Of a stretch of 64,000 bases of DNA, positions 2,102 to 61,289 are shown piece after piece. The notes under the pieces were generated by a model. The model did not search any database. It saw only the letters and a program-made list of their open reading frames with translations, and was not told where the DNA came from. The stretch is from Escherichia phage UE-S1: the sequence record ON568341.1. The stretch is one strand, 5' to 3'. Made by a program: the position numbers and the translations under genes. Each line of letters begins with the position of its first letter. Positions within the stretch are counted from its first letter, which is position 1.

Positions 2102-3055
2102 ATGACCACACTATGGACTGAAAAATATCGCCCACAAACAATGGAAGATTATGTATCAAAGAACGATGCACTACGCCAGAAAATGGAAGAATGGATTAAA
2201 ACTGGTGATATTCCTCATATTGGTTTTTTTGGCCCAGCAGGAACTGGTAAAACATCTGCAATTAAAGTTCTTATTAATGGGTTAGTTCAAAATGGACACC
2301 TAGACCCAAGTGATGTAACGACTCTTAATATGTCAGATGAAGGTATTGATGCGGTACGTGATAAAATCGATGCAGCAGCTAAACTATCATGTTTTGGAAG
2401 ATATCGTATTTTTGTTCTTGAAGAAATGGAGCAGATGAACCATAAAGCACAAGGTAGTTTGAAACGTGTAATGGAGGATTATCATGAAAATGCTCGCTTT
2501 ATTTTAACAAGTAATGAGCCACATAAAATTCAAAAGCCTATCATTTCTCGTGTTCAAGTCATCACTATTGAAAAGCATGACATGGAACAGTTCATGACTA
2601 GAATTTACAATATCCTTCTCGCCGAAGGTGTTGACCTGAGTAGTGATGATAGTGTTGAGCAAGTCCAAAAGTACATCAATGCTTCATATCCTGATTTTCG
2701 TAAAACGTTAAACGTATTGCAAAGTTCTGTTGTTGATGGTAAGCTAGTAAAATTAGAGGATAGTATTGAAAATTCAGCGGGATACCGCACTGCAATCATT
2801 GATGCATTGAAGGCAGGTAATATTCGTCAAATGCGAGAACAGATTGTTCAATCTATTCCTGATGATGAAATGGATGCATTTTTCTCTTACTTATACCGAA
2901 ATGCTGAAATGTTCAGTACTGACGAAATCACGCTGATGAAGATTAAAGTTAAAATTCGTGATGCAGTTGTAAAGCAAGCTACAGTGTCAGATCGTGAAAT
3001 GAATCTCAGTGCTTTGTTGTGTGAGATTGACCTAATTTGTTCGGGGAACATGTAA
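2102..3055 (+). CDS. clamp-loader AAA+ ATPase (T4 gp44 / RFC-like)
   Basis: EKYRPQTMEDY, Walker A GPAGTGKTS, SRVQVI and C-terminal YPDFRKTLNVL match T4 gp44 (EQKYRPSTIDE, SPGTGKT, FPDFRKTIGEL); 317 aa. Confidence 0.85.
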   Translation: MTTLWTEKYRPQTMEDYVSKNDALRQKMEEWIKTGDIPHIGFFGPAGTGKTSAIKVLINGLVQNGHLDPSDVTTLNMSDEGIDAVRDKIDAAAKLSCFGRYRIFVLEEMEQMNHKAQGSLKRVMEDYHENARFILTSNEPHKIQKPIISRVQVITIEKHDMEQFMTRIYNILLAEGVDLSSDDSVEQVQKYINASYPDFRKTLNVLQSSVVDGKLVKLEDSIENSAGYRTAIIDALKAGNIRQMREQIVQSIPDDEMDAFFSYLYRNAEMFSTDEITLMKIKVKIRDAVVKQATVSDREMNLSALLCEIDLICSGNM

Positions 3056-3684
3056 TGAAGCCACGTTGTATTGTCTTTGATTGTGACGAAGTTCTGTTGG
3101 ATCACATGGGTATGCTTTCTGAGTTTGTAAAACAAACTTATAATATCACACCATCAACAACATACCCATTGAAATATGATTTGTCAGATTGGTTAGGTGT
3201 ATCCCAGTCTGAAGTTAAAAAAATTCTTGAACATTTTAACCAACAATCATATTTGTTTGGATTGTTAAAGCCAGTTGAACCAAATACAGTTGATATTGTT
3301 CAAGAGTTGCGTGACCGTTTTTATAATGAAAAATTTGTAGTTCTAACTAAATGTGGCAAGAAAGGATATGGTGAAGTTTTGCGTAATGTAAATCTTATGC
3401 GTGAATTTGGTGAAAACTGCTTTGATGAGATTATCATTATTGAAATGAATGAATCAAAGAAACAAGCATTAGAAGAGTTACAAAAGAAGTATGATGTGAA
3501 ATTAATGATCGACGATTACATCAATAACATTGAAACTGCAATGGAACTTGGAATCCCTTCTGTTATGATGGGTTCTTCACATAATATTATGTATAAGAAT
3601 AATAGTACTGGATTTGAATATATAGATAACTGGACCGAACTTAGACTTAAAATTTATTCCGTTCTGGGTAAATATTACAAATAA
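3055..3684 (+). CDS. HAD-superfamily phosphatase / 5'(3')-deoxyribonucleotidase-like
   Basis: HAD motif I IVFDCDEVLLD (DxDxV) at N-terminus; ATG overlaps gp44 stop (TAATG). Confidence 0.6.
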   Translation: MKPRCIVFDCDEVLLDHMGMLSEFVKQTYNITPSTTYPLKYDLSDWLGVSQSEVKKILEHFNQQSYLFGLLKPVEPNTVDIVQELRDRFYNEKFVVLTKCGKKGYGEVLRNVNLMREFGENCFDEIIIIEMNESKKQALEELQKKYDVKLMIDDYINNIETAMELGIPSVMMGSSHNIMYKNNSTGFEYIDNWTELRLKIYSVLGKYYK

Positions 3685-5024: not shown

Positions 5025-5839
5025 GAATTTTAAATATGCTTAAATCTCTTCACGAAACAACGAAATTACATCATGATGAAAAATATCGTCGCAGTCTTAC
5101 AAAAGATTTAGCATGTCGAATGTATATGCGTAGATTCGAAATTTCTAGAATTGGCAAAGGGTGGGACGATGTAAATCGTGAAGATATTGATCCAGATGCA
5201 ATTTTTAAAGCATACATGGCTAGAAAAGTTTTCATAAATGAAAAAACTTTTTATATTGATAGTGATAGAGAATTAGAAAATAAATTTACAAAAGGTTTAT
5301 GGAAGATATGGTGTGTTGAAGTATTCGGTGAAGTATTACCTGAGCCACCTGTTCCAGAAACTTATAAAGATTTAAAAATTATTTTTGATAATGAACATAT
5401 ACATTCAAATTTTTCATTATATGATACTGTATCAGAAGCTGTATTTTATGGTGAGTTACATGGACATAACAAATACTTTAATAGTATGGTGAGTTTTGAT
5501 TTGTTTTGTCACTTACCTGGTGTATCAAGTTGGACTTGTGATCAATACAGAGCAAGTAAGTATGATAAGCGAAAATTCTCAGCACAAAGATTTATGCAAG
5601 TTGCTATGAGTATGTACAAGCTTGATTATCTAGGTTGTCCAGAGCCATATAAACATTTTTGGAAAGAAAGAGCACAAAAATGTTTAAACTATTGTATAAT
5701 TCGTTTAATGAACACATACATTCTTAAGTTTAGAAATGCAACTGTATACGACATGCCTGAACCACCAAAGAATGAAAAATATCCTCCAGTCAAAACATTT
5801 GTATGGTACAAGGATAAAAGTAACAAAAGGATGCACTAA
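5021..5839 (+). CDS. hypothetical protein (272 aa)
   Basis: Track ORF; overlapping stop/start with upstream gene. Confidence 0.55.
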   Translation: MRILNMLKSLHETTKLHHDEKYRRSLTKDLACRMYMRRFEISRIGKGWDDVNREDIDPDAIFKAYMARKVFINEKTFYIDSDRELENKFTKGLWKIWCVEVFGEVLPEPPVPETYKDLKIIFDNEHIHSNFSLYDTVSEAVFYGELHGHNKYFNSMVSFDLFCHLPGVSSWTCDQYRASKYDKRKFSAQRFMQVAMSMYKLDYLGCPEPYKHFWKERAQKCLNYCIIRLMNTYILKFRNATVYDMPEPPKNEKYPPVKTFVWYKDKSNKRMH

Positions 5840-7149: not shown

Positions 7150-8286
7150 ATGTCCGAGAAAGAAATCAATCCAAAAAAAGCATCTACCGCAGCTAAAACT
7201 ACAAAACGTTCTACCAAAACTGCATCTAAAGGGCATACCATTGATGCAAGTGATATTTTTAACCAAACTACAAAATCACTCCCAGTACTGAAAGATGTTA
7301 AGGGTAATACTATGTCTCTAACAGTTCAAAACATCAACACTGTTGGTACAACTGCTGGTGCTGCTGTTGGACGATTAGCTGATGAAATCATGTCTAAAGT
7401 TAATGTAACTGATGACAATACAGAGTTTGGAAAATCAATCACAACAATTCTTACATTGACTCGTGCAGTTGATATTGACAGTCTTCAAGAAGATAAATCA
7501 ATTGTGGGGCGTATTAAGAAATTTTTTGTTAATGCTCAGCAGAAAGTTGGTGATCAGTACAAAAATAGCAAAGAGCAAATTGATGAAATCATGAAAACTC
7601 TTCAAACTGGTATTAATCGCCAGCACGGAGAGTGTGAATGGCTTGATAAAGCATATAATGAAAACAAAGAATATTTGTTTGAATTACGTGATACATTAGT
7701 TGGTTTAGAAGAAGTAACGAAATCGCAAGATGCATTGTTAGCAGAAATGCAAGCAGACAAAAATGTAGACTCTTTTGCTATTCAAGAGCAGAAGATGATT
7801 TGTGAAGCACTTTCTAAACAAGAAGATAAGATTCGTCGTCTTATTATGATGTGTGAACTAAGTGGCCCACGTCTGATGAGTATGAAAAAAGTAAACTTGA
7901 ACACTGTTTCTAAGTTTGAAGATTTAAAATCTGTTGTTATTCCAGCATGGAAGTCTCAATTGGCTGAACAGTTGATTTCCGAGCGTCAACGTAAGGATAA
8001 TGAACTGGGAAATCTAATTGATAATGAGACAAACCGTCTTTTAGAAACTAATTCTAAAATGGTTGCAGCAAATATGTTGGATGCAGCAAAGGCAAACAAC
8101 CGTGGTATTGTGGATATTAAAACTTTGCGTAATGTACATAAAACAATGATTGACAGCATTGAAGCAGTTATTGAAGAAGAGAAAAAAGGTAAATTGGAAC
8201 GTGAACGTGCTAAACAGGAAATTGCACAACTTTCCTATGAACTTGAAGACACCCTTCGTGAAATTGCCGAAAAAGCTAACAAGTAA
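7150..8286 (+). CDS. coiled-coil protein (378 aa); function unknown
   Basis: Long heptad-like K/E-rich sequence; RBS-like acgaggaat upstream. Confidence 0.55.
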   Translation: MSEKEINPKKASTAAKTTKRSTKTASKGHTIDASDIFNQTTKSLPVLKDVKGNTMSLTVQNINTVGTTAGAAVGRLADEIMSKVNVTDDNTEFGKSITTILTLTRAVDIDSLQEDKSIVGRIKKFFVNAQQKVGDQYKNSKEQIDEIMKTLQTGINRQHGECEWLDKAYNENKEYLFELRDTLVGLEEVTKSQDALLAEMQADKNVDSFAIQEQKMICEALSKQEDKIRRLIMMCELSGPRLMSMKKVNLNTVSKFEDLKSVVIPAWKSQLAEQLISERQRKDNELGNLIDNETNRLLETNSKMVAANMLDAAKANNRGIVDIKTLRNVHKTMIDSIEAVIEEEKKGKLERERAKQEIAQLSYELEDTLREIAEKANK

Positions 8287-8289
8287 TAG

Positions 8290-8343
8290 TTGACATATGA
8301 GTGCGTTTTTCATATAATAATCTTATTGAAAACGCACTTTTTT
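8290..8343 (+). promoter_or_regulatory. promoter (TTGACA-N17-TATAAT) embedded in terminator-like hairpin
   Basis: TTGACA 8290-8295, TATAAT 8313-8318; GTGCGTTTT / AAAACGCAC arms flank the -10, then T-run. Confidence 0.5.
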
Positions 8344-8367
8344 AATGTACATATAAGGAACGGACAT

Positions 8368-9057
8368 ATGAAACGTCGTCATATTAGTGTTGATATTGAA
8401 GCTCTTGGGACTCCTGAACTTTCAGGTTATGATATTATTATTCCAAATTATGCCGCAGTTGTGGTTCCAAGTAAACCTGAAAATGACATTCATCAGTTCT
8501 TATATATTAAATTGCCATATCAGGATCAAGTTGCTGCTGGTTTAAAATCAGATGCAGGTGCAATGGATTTTTGGATGAATACATGTCAGAAAGAATACTC
8601 CAATGCATATGCTGAAGTTGCCAGTACTATGAAACTCAAAGCACCGGAACTGTATGGACCGAATGGTCAATCACGACGATTTTTCGCATACAGTAGTATT
8701 GTTGATTTCTGGAAAGAATTACGTTACAATGATTATGGCGAAGAAGTCCCTCATTCAGTCTGGGGTAACGGGTGTAATTTCGATTGTAGTATTTTACAAG
8801 CAAATCATTTAAAATTAATGAACACTGGAGAGTTGTGGAAGTATGATGCACCTGAAAATGCACGCACGTTGAAACGCTTACTAAATGAAGAAGCTCGTAT
8901 TGAAATGGATGAAATAGTTTCGGTACAATTAGCTAAATTTGTCACATATGCAAACAAGTGTGGGATTAATGGGTTGGAGTTGCACCACCCACTGTTTGAT
9001 GCAGCACGTGAAGCAATCCAGATTTCATTTTGTCTAAACAAGCTTAAAATGGATTAA
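8368..9057 (+). CDS. DexA-like 3'-5' exonuclease (DEDD family)
   Basis: ISVDIEALGT (Exo I DxE), GNGCNFDCSIL, HHPLFDAAREA resemble T4 DexA (IIDFETMG, GMSFDFPIL, HDSIHDCAKD); start set at ATG after AAGGAA RBS. Confidence 0.6.
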   Translation: MKRRHISVDIEALGTPELSGYDIIIPNYAAVVVPSKPENDIHQFLYIKLPYQDQVAAGLKSDAGAMDFWMNTCQKEYSNAYAEVASTMKLKAPELYGPNGQSRRFFAYSSIVDFWKELRYNDYGEEVPHSVWGNGCNFDCSILQANHLKLMNTGELWKYDAPENARTLKRLLNEEARIEMDEIVSVQLAKFVTYANKCGINGLELHHPLFDAAREAIQISFCLNKLKMD

Positions 9058-9060
9058 TAC

Positions 9061-10155
9061 ATGAATTTCATTATTCTGTTAATACCTGCTCTAATCGTCG
9101 TATTCGTTATGAAATACATGTATGATAAGCACATCAGTACTAAAGAATTGATGATTCATATTGGTTGTTGTGTATTAGGTGCTGCTCTTGTACTTGGGAT
9201 TTCATATGCAATTAATTATAGCCAACTATATGATGTAGAGATTTTAAATGGACAAGTAACATCAAAATATAACCATAAAGAAATTTGTACACAATCAAGT
9301 TCATGTAAGCACTATACATGGCATGAGAAGTGTCACACACGATATGATAGCAAAGGTAAATCACATCGTGAGTGTGAATCATATAAAGTGTTTGATTACT
9401 CATATGAAGTTGATTGGTATGTGAAAAGTACAGTGGGTGTATTTGTGATTGAACGTGTAAACCGTCAAGGTACAATGACACCACCACGTTGGCAGCAAGT
9501 TATGATTGGTGACTATGCCGCAGCAGAGAGTTCATATATCAACTATCTATTTGCTGATAAGAACTCATTGTTTAGCCCAGAAGAAATACACAACATATAT
9601 GATGAAAAGTATCTTAGCACTATTCCAGAATACCCAAGTGTAGTTGATTATTACAAAACACATCATGTAATTAACACTACAAATTACAACGTTGATGGTT
9701 ACGATGAATATCTTCGTAATGTGCTAAAAACGATGGGTGCACGTAAACAGGTAAACATCCAAGTTCTGGTGTATAATTACAAAGATAGTGACTTTGTTGC
9801 TGCAACTCTTGCAAAGTGGCGTGGTGGCAAGAAGAATGATGTTATTATGTTCTTTGGTATTGATAATGATGGTAACGTTGTTAAATTCAACAGTACCTCA
9901 TTTGCACAAGGTATGAAGAATGAAGATTTACATGCAAAGATGCGTATTGATGCATTAAATGAAAAATTAACTCTTGACTTATTAACCAAAGAAGTGCATA
10001 ATATTGATACACAATTCGAGAGACTCTCTAATAAAGAGTTTGAGTACTTATCAGTAAAAATGGAACCTAGAAAAGATGTTCTTATTGGTGCTTCCATTGT
10101 ATTGTTGATTCTGTCTATTTTCATTGGCCTTTATATGAGGGATAACAAGTTATGA
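9061..10155 (+). CDS. membrane protein (364 aa)
   Basis: Hydrophobic N- and C-terminal segments; Cys-rich central region. Confidence 0.55.
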   Translation: MNFIILLIPALIVVFVMKYMYDKHISTKELMIHIGCCVLGAALVLGISYAINYSQLYDVEILNGQVTSKYNHKEICTQSSSCKHYTWHEKCHTRYDSKGKSHRECESYKVFDYSYEVDWYVKSTVGVFVIERVNRQGTMTPPRWQQVMIGDYAAAESSYINYLFADKNSLFSPEEIHNIYDEKYLSTIPEYPSVVDYYKTHHVINTTNYNVDGYDEYLRNVLKTMGARKQVNIQVLVYNYKDSDFVAATLAKWRGGKKNDVIMFFGIDNDGNVVKFNSTSFAQGMKNEDLHAKMRIDALNEKLTLDLLTKEVHNIDTQFERLSNKEFEYLSVKMEPRKDVLIGASIVLLILSIFIGLYMRDNKL

Positions 10156-10715: not shown

Positions 10716-10742
10716 GGGAGTACTTTGTACTCCCCTTTTCTA
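10716..10742 (+). terminator. rho-independent terminator
   Basis: GGGAGTAC-tttg-TACTCCCC followed by TTTTC. Confidence 0.7.
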
Positions 10743-12266: not shown

Positions 12267-12758
12267 ATGTTTGAATTTCCTGAAGAGTCATTCAATTTTA
12301 TTGACCCTACAGATGATGGATATCAACATATTAACATTTATAGTAAAGCTAAAACTAAGTTAGGTAGAGATCTATCTAACTTTTCTTCTCATAGCTTCAC
12401 TCTTGAACCATATGGATGGTTCCCATCGGTTGAAACATTTTATTTTTGGTTTTTGACTGGTCAAAAGCATGATGATCTTCGACGAGTATCTGGTCCAGCA
12501 GCGAAGGCGGCAGCGAACAAATATATGCATGATAGAATCGAAATGACCGATGAATGTATTTCTATTATACAAGATGCAATTTGTGCCAAGATAATTCAAA
12601 ATCCAGAGTTAGCTGAAAGATTAAGAAAAAGTTCTTTACCATTTTACCATTACTACGTATATGGTGGAAAAGTGGTTGATGTGTCCGACGAACATGACTG
12701 GTTTGTAAAAACATTTGAATATATAAGAACTGCATTAAAGGAAATCCATAATGGGTAA
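12267..12758 (+). CDS. NADAR/YbiA-like (DUF1768) hydrolase
   Basis: LSNFSSHSF ... WFPSVETFYFW ... SGPAAKAAAN matches NADAR pattern FSNF...EH.YQA.K...SP.AK. Confidence 0.55.
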   Translation: MFEFPEESFNFIDPTDDGYQHINIYSKAKTKLGRDLSNFSSHSFTLEPYGWFPSVETFYFWFLTGQKHDDLRRVSGPAAKAAANKYMHDRIEMTDECISIIQDAICAKIIQNPELAERLRKSSLPFYHYYVYGGKVVDVSDEHDWFVKTFEYIRTALKEIHNG

Positions 12759-15502: not shown

Positions 15503-15528
15503 CTGCCCCGTTCTTCGGGGCATTTTTT
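15503..15528 (+). terminator. rho-independent terminator
   Basis: TGCCCCG-ttctt-CGGGGCA followed by TTTTTT. Confidence 0.7.
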
Positions 15529-18727: not shown

Positions 18728-20608
18728 ATGAAACCTATCCGAGTACTATCTCTTTTTAATGGGATGAGTGTAGGATACATGGCATTAAAAGATGCTGGTA
18801 TCCCTGTTGAAAAATATTATTCATCCGAAATTGACAAATTTGCTATAGCTGAATCCCAAGCTAACTTCCCCGATATCATCCAATTGGGTGATGTAACTAG
18901 ATGGAAAGAATGGGATATCGAATGGGACAAGATAGATCTACTGATGGGTGGTTTTCCATGCTTCCCAGCAGGAACTATGATAATGACAAATAAAGGTCAT
19001 AAAGATATAAAAGATATAAAAATTGGTGATATGGTTCTTACACACACTGGACAGTACCAAAAAGTATTGAGTACTGGTGTTAAAAAGGCTCCCACTCGTA
19101 TTATTACAGGTCAAGGTCACCTTCCAATTGAATGTACCGATAATCATCCATTTTGGAGTAGGGAACGTCTAGCCAATAAATGGAATAATCAACGCCGAAG
19201 ATATGATTCTGTGTTTTCTGAACCGCAATGGGTAAATGCTATAGATCTTACTAAACAAAGTTATATTTGTAATGTTAAAAATATTACACATAATACAGTA
19301 AGTGATAAAGATGAAAAATATTGGTATTTTGTTGGTCGTTTTATGGGTGATGGATGTGCTAGTGTATCTAATAACAAATACAGTATTACTATTGTAGATT
19401 CATTAGATAAAGTTGATGAATTGAAAAAATGTTTTGATGATTTTGGATACAAATACACATTAGCTATTAAAGATAATCATGTAAGATGTGATATATATAG
19501 CAAAAAGCTTTATGATGAATTAATATGTATTGGGCATAAATCACAAAACAAATGTTTACCACCTGAAATATTCAATGAAACTATCAATAACAAAGAAGCA
19601 TTTATTAAAGGATACATGGATGCAGATGGTTGTGAGGATAAACACAATAAAAAATACAAATTTACCACCACAAGTTATAAAATAGTTCTTGGTATGCAAC
19701 AGTTAATCTTAGATACTTATCAACGTCATTGTACTATTAGTCAAACTGTTCCAAAAACAAAAAAATATATAAAAAATAAGTTGGTTAATCAGCTTCCGTA
19801 TTGGAATGTTCATTTTAGCTATAATAAAATTAAAAGAGATGATGTAATATATGATGAAATTTATATATGGAATCGTGGTGTAAAAAGTAATGTACCAACC
19901 GGAGAATGGAAAACCGTTTACAATATTGAAGTTGCAGTAGATAACACATATACGGCGAACAATATTGTAGTTCATAACTGCCAAGCGTGGTCAGTTGCAG
20001 GTAAACAGGGTGGAATAAATGATCCTCGTGGTATGTTATTCCATACAATGGTTGATATTTACCAGCACATAAAAAGTCTCAATCCAGACTTGAAAGTACT
20101 GTTCGAGAATGTTAAAATGAAAGAAGATTTCAAGCAATACATTAATAGTGTTCTTGAGATGACACCAGTACTGATAAATTCCCAGCATTATACGCCTCAC
20201 TTCAGGCAGAGATATTACTGGTACAGTACTGATAAACTTTTTATACCACCTGCATTATCAAATGCACCTAAACTTCAAGATATTATTGAAGATGGTTGGT
20301 ACACTGACAGAACCGCTTCGTACTGTATAGATGCTAACTATTTTAAGGGTGGGGATTGTAACCAGTACTTTAATAAATCAAGAAGACAAATTGTTTTCAA
20401 AGAACCTGATATCGATAGGGATTTCCTTCTTGAACATGGTAAGCGAAATGTGGACTATCGTCATTTAACAGTACAAGAGTGTTGCATGTTGCAAGGAATT
20501 GATGTAAACTACTTCAAAGTTAGTAGTTCAACACAAGCATACAAAATGCTTGGGAATGGATGGACTATGCCAGTTATATCACACTTACTACGAGATATAT
20601 TCTTTTGA
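18728..20608 (+). CDS. C5-cytosine DNA methyltransferase, intein-containing precursor (626 aa)
   Basis: Motif I SLFNGMSVG, motif IV GGFP|...|CQAWSVAGKQGG (split by intein), motif VI VLFENVK, QRYYW, C-terminal GNGWTMPV. Confidence 0.8.
   Translation: MKPIRVLSLFNGMSVGYMALKDAGIPVEKYYSSEIDKFAIAESQANFPDIIQLGDVTRWKEWDIEWDKIDLLMGGFPCFPAGTMIMTNKGHKDIKDIKIGDMVLTHTGQYQKVLSTGVKKAPTRIITGQGHLPIECTDNHPFWSRERLANKWNNQRRRYDSVFSEPQWVNAIDLTKQSYICNVKNITHNTVSDKDEKYWYFVGRFMGDGCASVSNNKYSITIVDSLDKVDELKKCFDDFGYKYTLAIKDNHVRCDIYSKKLYDELICIGHKSQNKCLPPEIFNETINNKEAFIKGYMDADGCEDKHNKKYKFTTTSYKIVLGMQQLILDTYQRHCTISQTVPKTKKYIKNKLVNQLPYWNVHFSYNKIKRDDVIYDEIYIWNRGVKSNVPTGEWKTVYNIEVAVDNTYTANNIVVHNCQAWSVAGKQGGINDPRGMLFHTMVDIYQHIKSLNPDLKVLFENVKMKEDFKQYINSVLEMTPVLINSQHYTPHFRQRYYWYSTDKLFIPPALSNAPKLQDIIEDGWYTDRTASYCIDANYFKGGDCNQYFNKSRRQIVFKEPDIDRDFLLEHGKRNVDYRHLTVQECCMLQGIDVNYFKVSSSTQAYKMLGNGWTMPVISHLLRDIFF
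18959..19978 (+). mobile_element. intein with LAGLIDADG homing-endonuclease domain (340 aa)
   Basis: Begins CFPAGTMIMT, block B CTDNHPF, LAGLIDADG motifs FVGRFMGDG and IKGYMDADG, ends VYNIEVAVDNTYTANNIVVHN, +1 Cys; excision restores GGFPCQAWS. Confidence 0.8.
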
Positions 20609-32151: not shown

Positions 32152-33849
<1,698 letters not shown>

Positions 33850-41776: not shown

Positions 41777-42931
41777 TTATTCGTTATAGCCAACAATAAC
41801 TACTGAGCAGTCAAGTGGTTCACCAACTTTTACAATTACGTTATCATCTTCATCAACTTGTAAATCACTATGAATTACCTGTTTATCAGAAGAATACAAT
41901 TGAACTTGTGGAAGTGCTTTACCATGTTCAGTTGCAGGAATGGATAGAGAATACATTGAGTCTTCATCATGTTTCCAATCACTTAACGCATATTCCTTGT
42001 GGAACGGTGTAGTATGTAGAGTTTTACCCATAATACGTAAAGATATAGGAGAATTATCAGTTTGTTGTACTGTAATATTACCTTTATCATCAACTGACAT
42101 ATCAACGCCTATTTGATGGGAATCCCCATTATATGTTTGGAGAACCAATTTATGTCCACGTTTATGAACATCATATGGTACTACAGCAGAGAATGCACCA
42201 TCAGGTGATGGTTGAAAATCTGACAAGTGAACAGGTGTAACAAAATCTACATCTTCACCATGTTCCTGAACATCAAACTCAACAACTTTAGTATTATAAT
42301 ATGGAGAAGTTAGGGTAGCAGTACCTTTTCCTTTTTGTGTAATTGCATCAACTTGGATTGTAAATGTATCACCAGCAAATTGAGTAGTAGTGTATTCTGT
42401 TCCTTCAGGTAAAACAATTTTGATTTCCATTGAATTGGTATCAATTTCGGAACCAGCATTGAATAACTTACCACTAATTGATTTGTCACCAACAAATACA
42501 GGTGAAATAATAATATTATCTATATCACGATCAATAATACTACATTCAGGTGTGTACATATTGTAAAGAGTTTTTGAACTTCCTAATATTGTTTTATGTA
42601 ATAGGAATTTATATACAAAGCCAGTATCAGCCTCTTGATGGTCATCCGAATGTCCACGAACAAAGAAACTATTTTTATTAATTTCACTTAATAGTTCGTC
42701 AGTTGATTTACTATAATTTAATAGATAACCTTTATTATCTTTTGTTGTTAATTGGACTTTACGATAGATTATATTAGTTCTAGGATCAACTAAATCATAT
42801 AATTTATGACTTCTCTGACGATAGATTCTAATATTTTTTAGTTTAGATCCGTCATTAAGAATCGCACCATCAACGATATAACCACATTCACCAAACTTAT
42901 ATCTTCCAGCCGCTGCAATTGATCTTGACAT
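41777..42931 (-). CDS. hypothetical protein (384 aa)
   Basis: ATG with GGAGGAATAA RBS on minus strand; convergent with upstream + gene. Confidence 0.65.
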   Translation of the reverse strand: MSRSIAAAGRYKFGECGYIVDGAILNDGSKLKNIRIYRQRSHKLYDLVDPRTNIIYRKVQLTTKDNKGYLLNYSKSTDELLSEINKNSFFVRGHSDDHQEADTGFVYKFLLHKTILGSSKTLYNMYTPECSIIDRDIDNIIISPVFVGDKSISGKLFNAGSEIDTNSMEIKIVLPEGTEYTTTQFAGDTFTIQVDAITQKGKGTATLTSPYYNTKVVEFDVQEHGEDVDFVTPVHLSDFQPSPDGAFSAVVPYDVHKRGHKLVLQTYNGDSHQIGVDMSVDDKGNITVQQTDNSPISLRIMGKTLHTTPFHKEYALSDWKHDEDSMYSLSIPATEHGKALPQVQLYSSDKQVIHSDLQVDEDDNVIVKVGEPLDCSVVIVGYNE

Positions 42932-59957: not shown

Positions 59958-59984
59958 GGGTTGACTTCGGTCAGCCTTTTTTTA
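59958..59984 (+). terminator. terminator GGGTTGAC-ttcg-GTCAGCC (copy 2)
   Basis: Identical hairpin followed by TTTTTTT. Confidence 0.75.
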
Positions 59985-60014
59985 TATACTATAAATATAG
60001 TCATAGAGAAAAAC

Positions 60015-61289
60015 ATGAAATCTATGGAGAGAAATCAAATGCCAAGTAATTTTACTGATAAAAATGGTGGTAACATGGCAGGTCACTCGGATAAATGGAG
60101 TGAACGCAACCGCCGACCAAATAGTTACCAAGCAGGTCAAGGTTCTCGTGGCTCCAGAAACCAAGGAACTGGTCTAGCTGGTAAAGCAAATGCTGAACCT
60201 GGTGAAGTTAAAAGTACTGAGAACATGACTGAGCTAGAAAAACTACGCTACGTTAATTCATTGGGACTTCTTAATGCTACACAAAAACAACGTCTAGCTG
60301 ATATGGAACGTGAAGAAAAAGAAAAGACTGCTCCTGCGAAAGAAGAACCAAAACAAGAAGCACCAAAGGCGGTTAACCCTGTCAAAGAACTGTCTGATAA
60401 GTTAGGTAAGATCTTTGCAAATAAACCCCAACTTATTCAAGGTATTGTCAAAGAATTGCAATCTGTACCTAAAGAAGAATTAAAAGCCAAAGCACAAGCT
60501 GTTCTGGATGCAATGAAAGGAAATACCAGTACTGAACCAACCGAAGTATTCAGTACTATTATGCGTGCACTGGAAGGTAAACAACAAGGTGAAGAACGTG
60601 GTGATGAAGTAAGTCTTGAACGTGTTCTTAAAACATTTGATAGTATTGGGAAAGAAGACCGTGTTAATGCACAACAGGTTAAAAATGTACTAGCAAAATT
60701 GGAAAACCGTCTAGAAGGTAAAGATGATAAGATTAAATTGGTATCCGATGCAGTTGAAAATGCACTTAAATCTTATGTACAAGGTGAAAAGAGTCGTTTT
60801 GTAACTGCTATGGATGCTGCATTCAATACTATGAAAAAGTACGAAGCGGATCATGGAGAGAAGGTAACACGAGATGGTTATTTAATGCGTGATGATGAAG
60901 AAGGTGCAGTGGAACAGAATGATGCTCATTCTGACGAAGATATTGATGACATGGAAGCAGAACTGTCACAGGACCGCCAAATGACTGAAAAATCTCACAA
61001 TGAACTACAGAAATTAATGCAGTGGGTTGCAGAAGTAGGTGAAAAGGCTGGTGAAGATAAGAAGAGTATCAACCGAAACCTAAGTTGGATTAAAGATAAG
61101 GTTGGTAATAACGCTCGTAAACTACAAAAAGCATGGACTGATGTAGTGAATGGTGCGGTAGATATTGATGTTGAGTCTGGTGAAGCATATGATTATGCAT
61201 TGACTACACTTGATGATTCTTTTCGTGACTACGAAAAAGGAAACGTTACTCCTTGGGAAAAGGACATAATGAGTAAATATGGTAAATGA
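60015..61289 (+). CDS. K/E-rich protein, SLGLL-motif paralog (~425 aa); start uncertain (60015-60039)
   Basis: LRYVNSLGLLNATQKQ; QSVPKEELKAKAQAV; track start at 59961 lies inside the terminator. Confidence 0.5.
   Translation: MKSMERNQMPSNFTDKNGGNMAGHSDKWSERNRRPNSYQAGQGSRGSRNQGTGLAGKANAEPGEVKSTENMTELEKLRYVNSLGLLNATQKQRLADMEREEKEKTAPAKEEPKQEAPKAVNPVKELSDKLGKIFANKPQLIQGIVKELQSVPKEELKAKAQAVLDAMKGNTSTEPTEVFSTIMRALEGKQQGEERGDEVSLERVLKTFDSIGKEDRVNAQQVKNVLAKLENRLEGKDDKIKLVSDAVENALKSYVQGEKSRFVTAMDAAFNTMKKYEADHGEKVTRDGYLMRDDEEGAVEQNDAHSDEDIDDMEAELSQDRQMTEKSHNELQKLMQWVAEVGEKAGEDKKSINRNLSWIKDKVGNNARKLQKAWTDVVNGAVDIDVESGEAYDYALTTLDDSFRDYEKGNVTPWEKDIMSKYGK

Follow-up and report, generated by a model that had tools for sequence, protein, structure and literature searches.

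Background

NADAR subfamilies are told apart by one residue on the last catalytic strand, which is Glu in YbiA-type or general NADARs, Asp in the DarG1/BC4488 antitoxin NADARs and His in the 'phage NADARs', that is, T4 gp30.3 (PMC11543638; PMC11125620; PMC12945103). The T4 protein gp30.3, or AdfN, removes guanine-linked ADP-ribose from phage DNA (PMC11825919), and its gene is dispensable without the toxin-antitoxin system DarTG1 and essential with it (HIDEN-SEQ preprint). Activity on base-linked ADP-ribose (ADPr) in nucleic acids has been reported for all NADAR subfamilies tested (PMC12945103). Here we describe a NADAR-like gene of Escherichia phage UE-S1 (record ON568341.1), which lies in an analysed stretch of 64,000 nucleotides, hereafter the window, and compare its product with these systems. 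A sequence-only reading of the window had taken the product for a NADAR/YbiA-like hydrolase that might counter an ADP-ribosylating defence.

Assignment to the NADAR superfamily

The 163-residue protein found no match in Pfam at E ≤ 10, the families PF08719 (general NADAR) and PF08010 (gp30.3/AdfN) included, and none in NCBIfam; in PHROGs it was placed in phrog_652 (E 4.7e-44) and phrog_11222, both families of unknown function. A single-sequence phmmer search of the PDB returned E. coli YbiA as the sole match at a marginal E of 0.25, and profiles were therefore needed. The profile built on an alignment of 31 homologs (A1) matched the P. nicotianae NADAR, PnNADAR (8BAU, E 2e-4), and YbiA (2B3W, E 8e-4) in the PDB, and in an hhalign comparison it matched the canonical NADAR alignment (A4) with a probability of 97.4 % (E 1.4e-11). 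Among the same 31 homologs, PF08719 was matched by 4 at E 0.024 or weaker, and PF08010 weakly by 8, the best of them (E 4.9e-4) being sub-threshold.

An AlphaFold2 model on the A1 alignment reached a mean predicted local distance difference test score (pLDDT) of 90.4 and a predicted template modelling score (pTM) of 0.84. Using this model, Foldseek found exactly three credible matches in the PDB, namely YbiA, the G. lovleyi DarG1-NADAR and PnNADAR, each with probability 1.0, all remaining entries having E > 1. In the viral models of BFVD, the best matches were uncharacterised members of the same family, followed by NADAR-annotated proteins of giant viruses and phages. The protein, by its profile (hidden Markov model, HMM, against the PDB and hhalign against the canonical alignment) as well as by its modelled fold, groups with the NADAR superfamily and with no other, and its prediction as a NADAR-fold protein is confirmed at both levels. 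The motifs on which the sequence-only reading had relied, LSNFSSHSF, WFPSVETFYFW and SGPAAKAAAN, are all present, at residues 36-44, 51-61 and 75-84 of an open reading frame (ORF) with exactly the boundaries given in Table 1. The fold it had assigned, and the general idea of a counter to ADP-ribosylation, hold up well, while its qualifier 'YbiA-like' proves imprecise.

The place of the protein within the superfamily was addressed by comparing profiles. The A1 profile aligned with that of gp30.3 (A2) over 137 columns at a probability of 97.2 % (E 4e-11), close to its score against canonical NADARs given above, and gp30.3 and canonical NADARs aligned with each other at 98.7 % (E 2e-16); the window family is therefore a third, more divergent branch and not a subclade of gp30.3. 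A local gp30.3 HMM, when searched against the window, ranked the NADAR-like ORF first of 579 ORFs at E 0.046. The conserved gp30.3 set, consisting of E36, K43, H123 and a C-terminal T-x-L-T-x-x-E-F helix, is present in part: equivalents of the Glu and the His are kept, K43 is absent and TxLTxxEF is replaced by W145-x8-R154. Because K43 and TxLTxxEF are missing, the window family is regarded as a sister family of gp30.3/AdfN and not as a member of it.

Active site and conserved motifs

Residue counts come from an alignment of 178 family members, the window protein among them; 177 have a residue in each column counted. E56 is paired with the catalytic Glu of NADARs, the residue that opens the first core helix, in every profile alignment, and the LSNF signature is aligned to LSNF or FSNF in 8BAU, YbiA, gp30.3 and the canonical NADARs. 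K80 is aligned to the AKKLGR motif of 8BAU; its counterpart K115 in the NADAR of E. coli C7 (EcC7) is dispensable in vitro and required against DarT1 in cells (PMC11543638). On the catalytic strand, modelled at residues 129-132, the HYY motif stands at the start and supplies the polar or charged residue expected there. By hhalign against gp30.3, H128 is aligned to T4 AdfN H123, where YbiA has Glu and DarG1 has Asp, whereas against the canonical NADARs the catalytic Glu falls on Y129, so the register of H128 is uncertain by one residue.

The Lys found seven residues after the catalytic Glu in canonical NADARs is absent, and this result is consistent in the alignments to 8BAU, T4, gp30.3 and the canonical profiles. 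The column is variable over the 177 sequences (S43/L42/G35/K17). In EcC7 the corresponding K95 contacts the adenine and the pyrophosphate and is needed for efficient hydrolysis and for rescue from DarT1 (PMC11543638). A family-specific basic residue, R72, is Arg or Lys in 174 of the 177 sequences; the missing Lys may be functionally replaced by one of the conserved family-specific basic residues R72, K27 or R34.

A second peculiarity of the family is an N-terminal D-G-x-x-H-x-N motif, with D17 and H21 each kept in 172, G18 in 176 and N23 in all 177 sequences. Neither the gp30.3 alignment nor the canonical NADAR alignment examined contains it, the canonical one ending short of this segment. In the comparison with gp30.3, D17, G18 and H21 fall before the N-terminal end of the aligned region, and N23 pairs with an Asp/Glu at the start of the first strand of gp30.3. 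The clade of the window protein, which is that of the 121Q-like phages, further departs from its own family at several positions that are well kept elsewhere in it, by G57T, W59Y, Y60F, L62F, G83A, R/K84N and F97C.

Table 1. Coordinates of the NADAR-like gene and of its sites and motifs within the window
Feature	Position	Strand	Basis or conservation
NADAR-like coding sequence, 163 residues, PHROG 652 family, stand-alone single domain	12267..12758	+	ATG-initiated ORF list
Purine-rich stretch AGGGGAAGAAGAA	12249..12261	+	read from sequence, 5' of the ATG
D17-G18-x-x-H21-I-N23, family-specific N-terminal motif (codons 17-23)	12315..12335	+	97-100 % conserved
L36-S37-N38-F39, NADAR superfamily signature	12372..12383	+	at least 88 % conserved
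E56 (codon 56, GAA), aligned to the catalytic Glu (EcC7 E88, PnNADAR E43, T4 AdfN E36)	12432..12434	+	invariant, 177/177
L63, site of the canonical Glu+7 Lys (EcC7 K95, PnNADAR K50, T4 K43), codon 63	12453..12455	+	alignments
K80 of the 'AK' motif (PnNADAR K75, EcC7 K115), codon 80 AAG	12504..12506	+	176/177
H128-Y129-Y130 on the catalytic beta-strand	12648..12656	+	175/177, 173/177, 171/177

The gene and its conservation

The window shares about 90 % identity with a set of Escherichia jumbo phages of roughly 350 kb, 121Q, PBECO4, UB, phAPEC6 and JP4, and in each of these the orthologous gene is labelled 'hypothetical protein'. Orthologs are conserved across 35 genomes of related jumbo phages; their nucleotide identity is 60-95 % and reaches 80 % or more in 23 genomes. 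The comparison with the JP4 ortholog shows 45 synonymous and 12 non-synonymous changes, which corresponds to a ratio of non-synonymous to synonymous rates (dN/dS) of 0.043 and therefore indicates a real gene under strong purifying selection; conservation and dN/dS together speak for a selected gene and not a chance ORF.

The gene starts 2 nucleotides after the stop codon of the upstream gene and overlaps by 8 nucleotides the next ORF, whose ATG is at 12751. The purine-rich stretch AGGGGAAGAAGAA, within the end of the upstream ORF, is a putative ribosome-binding site. The surroundings form a long same-strand array of small and tightly packed genes, and the NADAR-like gene is probably expressed from this array, whose small genes are unannotated and which lies downstream of the genes for replication. 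A scan of the window for promoters and terminators gave no enrichment over shuffled sequences (65 vs 54±7), and hence no claim on transcription units is made beyond two terminator-like GC-rich hairpins with T-runs, at 10716-10734 (+) and 15504-15522 (+), which flank the block of small genes containing the NADAR-like gene. A perfect sigma-70 consensus, TTGACA-17-TATAAT, was also seen at 8290-8318.

Distribution and domain architectures

By tblastn the window family was detected in 565 phage records. The hosts or phage groups represented include Ackermannviridae-like phages of Salmonella, Klebsiella and Dickeya, jumbo phages of Erwinia and E. coli, Vibrio phages of about 157 kb, Pseudomonas phage phiPMW and E. 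coli phage ST32, among others. None of the annotations among the tblastn matches listed is functional; almost all read 'hypothetical protein', and the few others are generic, 'virion structural protein' and 'coil containing protein' among them. An exhaustive profile search collected 2,095 clusters at 50 % identity (E ≤ 1e-3), 666 of them at E ≤ 1e-30, and about half of its top matches are multidomain.

The partners recognised in 88 multidomain relatives are DUF4326 (27), YAcAr SLOG (20), Macro (6) and DUF488-N3a (6), together with YpsA SLOG, calcineurin-like phosphoesterase and, once, the canonical Pfam NADAR domain; DNA_processg_A matches in 11 of the 88 probably cover the same region as YAcAr SLOG. 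With [domain] standing for the window-family domain, the arrangements seen include Macro-DUF4326-[domain]-YAcAr and DUF4326-[domain]-YpsA as well as Metallophos-[domain] and [domain]-DUF488. Since the relatives are fused to Macro, SLOG, DUF4326 and DUF488 domains, an ADP-ribose-derived substrate is well supported for the family. One relative, P0247 (1415 residues), carries a canonical Pfam NADAR domain at residues 10-143 (E-x6-K, E..D..WG) as well as a Lys-less family domain at 547-698; it also has DUF4326 at 1185-1274 and, by eye, Macro-like and SLOG-like regions. That a single polypeptide holds both NADAR types suggests that their specificities are not redundant. A BFVD entry, A0A173GE06 (Erwinia phage vB_EamM_RAY, 293 residues), is a fusion of the window-family domain with SLOG and is annotated as 'DprA-like protein', which is probably a misannotation arising from SLOG/DNA_processg_A similarity.

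Genomic neighbourhoods

None of the ten ORFs flanking the NADAR-like gene has a Pfam match. No second NADAR was found in the window, and no Alt-like ADP-ribosyltransferase (ART) when phmmer was run with T4 Alt and the ART of the contig L003 (see below) as queries; a window-wide Pfam survey detected no Macro, Nudix, SLOG or DUF4326 domain in the 64 kb. A TelA-like gene lies at 7150-8286 (+) (PF05816, E 9.3e-38), and TelA is syntenic with a family member in the contig L008 too. At 3037-3684 (+) the window encodes a 215-residue protein similar to NT5C/HAD-type 5'-nucleotidases, a homolog of T4 gp30.2 (phmmer E 2.7e-7), about 9 kb from the NADAR-like gene. Gene 30.2 of T4 lies immediately next to 30.3/adfN, and the full activity of AdfN-T4 has been reported to depend on an unknown T-even factor.

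The neighbourhoods of five distant homologs were sampled for a conserved partner. They are heterogeneous, with an ART, an NMN (nicotinamide mononucleotide) adenylyltransferase-like gene, a Metallophos gene and TelA synteny seen once each, and no conserved partner among them. In L003, a 117-kb metagenomic phage contig, the family gene P0026 at 8001-8435 (+) adjoins a gene for a 392-residue Alt-like ADPrib_exo_Tox at 8500-9678 (-), and a DNA ligase gene lies at 257-1141, about 7 kb upstream of P0026, an arrangement resembling the T4 order alt-30-30.1-30.2-30.3. In the contig L007, a CTP_transf_like (NMN adenylyltransferase-like) gene at 5378-5785 (+) stands two genes upstream of P0018 (6001-6693), which fits the reported linkage of phage NADARs with genes of nicotinamide adenine dinucleotide (NAD+) salvage.

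Proposed function and alternatives

The protein would be a small single-domain enzyme of the NADAR superfamily, acting as a ribosyl N-glycohydrolase that cleaves the link from the distal ribose of ADP-ribose to the acceptor nitrogen. A DarT1-type toxin of the host would put ADP-ribose on guanine (guanine-N2-ADPr) in replicating phage DNA, and the phage protein would remove it as a counter-defence, as T4 AdfN does, so that phage replication could go on. The first part is the firmest, and we consider it likely that the protein is an active NADAR-type hydrolase on an N-glycosidic conjugate of the ADP-ribose type. That DarT1-type ADP-ribosylated DNA is its physiological substrate is put forward tentatively, at a little under an even chance, and the complete explanation, including both the DNA substrate and the counter-defence role, is likewise a leading candidate that falls somewhat short of probable. 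The DNA substrate is favoured because the nearest characterised relatives de-ADP-ribosylate guanine, because every NADAR subfamily tested has such activity (PMC12945103), and because the equivalent of K115 (K80) is kept and strains of E. coli carry DarTG1. The proposed anti-DarT role is rendered less certain by the atypical active site.

Several observations weigh against guanine-linked ADP-ribose on DNA as the substrate. Besides the loss of the Glu+7 Lys in a variable column, the window clade has A83 and N84 in place of the G-R of 'AKxxGR' and lacks the 'LRxxDW' segment that some relatives and the canonical NADARs keep; these altered sites correspond to R79, D86 and W89 of PnNADAR, which bind ADP and pyrophosphate. 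As the GR and DW sites are changed and E56 and HYY are kept, the distal-ribose centre is therefore intact and the ADP-binding periphery remodelled. No DarT, ART or other ADP-ribose-related gene was found within the window, and no conserved neighbour pointing to DNA was found. P0247 combines a canonical NADAR with a domain of this family, and the fusions with SLOG, DUF4326 and Macro are read by Iyer et al. (PMC9503650) as processing soluble ADPr derivatives.

The last two points lead to a substrate that is a soluble ADP-ribose derivative of low molecular weight instead of DNA, by whose cleavage an NAD-based defence would be blunted. Examples are an N-linked cyclic ADPr isomer or an amino-acid or base-ADPr conjugate, serving as a host immune signal or formed as a toxic NAD+-derived metabolite; we regard this as the main rival explanation, unlikely yet worth serious consideration. 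The relatives in architectures with Macro, DUF4326, SLOG, YpsA, Metallophos and DUF488 fit such a substrate, and in 2022 Iyer et al. described the fusions as a division of labour on soluble ADPr derivatives (PMC9503650) and proposed soluble signals or toxins derived from ADPr as what phage NADARs mostly process. Loss of the Lys that binds adenine and pyrophosphate, along with that of the GR and DW motifs in the window clade, suggests an altered ligand, and the pairing in P0247 and the NMN adenylyltransferase-like gene two genes upstream in L007 point the same way. However, our literature searches found no NADAR shown to act on an immune signal, every subfamily tested has base-linked ADPr of nucleic acids as a substrate (PMC12945103), and the window protein stands alone with no SLOG, Macro or DUF4326 partner in 64 kb.

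A related view, which we also hold to be unlikely, is that the Lys-less branch with the DG-H-N and HYY motifs has evolved a substrate other than guanine-ADPr on DNA. The co-occurrence in P0247 and the recurrent SLOG, DUF4326 and Macro fusions fit a distinct specificity. The candidate substrates would be an immune signal or toxin that is N-linked and derived from ADPr, or else ADP-ribose carried by RNA or by a different base.

The protein might instead serve the ADP-ribosylation economy of the phage itself, by reversing or editing collateral marks of Alt/Mod-like ARTs or by clearing ADPr by-products after NAD-dependent RNA repair, an explanation we find improbable. The L003 arrangement, in which the family member adjoins an Alt-like ADPrib_exo_Tox gene and a DNA ligase gene lies upstream in an echo of the T4 order, is what would be expected, as is the co-expression of NADAR and ART in T4-like phages described by Iyer et al. 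Neither the window nor the other sampled contexts contain an ART homolog, however, and the fact that T4 adfN is dispensable without DarTG1 and essential with it speaks for defence evasion and not for housekeeping.

Could the protein be a catalytically impaired NADAR that acts as a sponge or decoy by binding an ADPr ligand or a toxin? One of the two catalytic residues common to the superfamily, the Lys, is missing, and so are several ADP-binding residues in the window clade. Yet E56, H128, Y129, Y130, N23, D17 and H21 are near-invariant in a very diverse family, a pattern typical of an active site, and T4 AdfN K43A still gave partial rescue, so the Lys is not absolutely essential (PMC11825919); a pure binder is thus still more improbable. 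The least probable explanation is a YbiA-type metabolic N-glycosidase destroying reactive intermediates of the riboflavin pathway, a reading that was rejected on context.

Significance

Removal of a defence mark by a phage NADAR is a counter-defence of a known kind, and comparative genomics has probably counted the window family among NADARs already. The ability of phage NADARs to overcome abortive infection by DarTG1 was demonstrated only recently, the proteins tested being T4 gp30.3 and two phage NADARs of canonical type. The window family is much larger, with its 2,095 clusters and 565 phage genomes, among them Ackermannviridae and 121Q-like jumbo phages, which are biocontrol or therapy candidates. 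Neither Pfam nor NCBIfam detects the family, and in the deposited genomes sampled its members are labelled 'hypothetical' or bear unrelated generic names. In our literature searches the branch was not recognised as distinct, its missing canonical Lys and its DG-H-N and HYY motifs were not mentioned, and no experiment on it was found.

If its members are DNA de-ADP-ribosylases like AdfN, then DarT1-type defences are countered far more widely than annotation shows and the NADAR mechanism tolerates the loss of an 'essential' Lys. If the substrate differs, the family would represent a new anti-defence activity and a new enzymatic class in hundreds of jumbo, Ackermannviridae and Vibrio phages.

Other features of the window

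The ORF of 626 residues at 18728-20608 (+) encodes a C-5 cytosine DNA methylase (PF00145, E 8.4e-29, in three stretches) that is split by an intein, with Hint_2 at residues 77-134, a LAGLIDADG_3 homing endonuclease at 289-330 and Intein_splicing extending to residue 417. The methylase ortholog in JP4 has 286 residues, and the intein is therefore present in the window and absent in JP4. Window-wide Pfam matches also include a sigma-70-like factor, a Cpn10/GroES-like protein, a clamp loader, fragments of DNA polymerase III alpha, a Rv2179c-like exonuclease and HNH/NUMOD4 homing endonucleases. Large ORFs with no Pfam match lie at 32152-33849 (-), 41777-42931 (-) and 59961-61289 (+).

Comparison with known NADARs

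The YbiA-type or general NADARs (PF08719; 2B3W, 8BAU) differ from the window protein in their Pfam match and in the E-x6-K motif, both of which it lacks. Their catalytic strand 'E....D..WG' is 'HYYxYGxK' in the window family, and LRPDW is absent in the window clade. The DarG1/BC4488-type antitoxins (E. coli C7, G. lovleyi; 8BAT) are linked to a DarT toxin, whereas the window contains no ART by phmmer or by the window-wide Pfam scan and its NADAR-like gene has no linked DarT1. The protein has His or Tyr where DarG1 has Asp171, lacks an equivalent of K95 and does not have the additional N-terminal helix and sheets from which DarG1 builds its DNA channel (PMC12945103).

The viral 'NADAR' fusions with SLOG, Macro and DUF4326 described in PMC7824862 and PMC9503650 match the architectures of the window family, and because of this match the profiles used by Iyer, Burroughs, Aravind and colleagues very probably include the family already. 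In the passages of these surveys consulted, the window branch, its missing Lys and its specific motifs are not singled out; the surveys predict soluble substrates.

AdfN-Bas32 and AdfN-Bas60 were found through DELTA-BLAST conserved-domain searches, and their authors group both with archaeal and non-DarT bacterial NADARs. The Bas60-type phages form a group, the Vequintavirinae, that is well represented among E. coli phages. Only 66 Escherichia phage records match the window family by tblastn, which seems too small a number if that group carried it, and the indirect evidence suggests that both proteins lie outside the family.

T4 gp30.3/AdfN (PF08010) has demonstrated activity, whereas that of the window family is predicted. 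The window protein lacks K43, has HYY in place of (K/T)HS and carries the additional N-terminal D-G-x-x-H-x-N motif of its family, which stands no nearer to gp30.3 than to the canonical NADARs and is found among jumbo phages, Ackermannviridae and phages of Vibrio and Pseudomonas and not in T4-like phages. Nevertheless, each is a small stand-alone phage protein that spans about 150-160 residues and has just the NADAR core, and the LSNF and G-x-x-AK motifs are common to both. The catalytic Glu is followed by Gly in gp30.3 as in most of the window family (the window protein itself has Thr57), and both place a His on the catalytic strand, H128 corresponding to H123 of T4.
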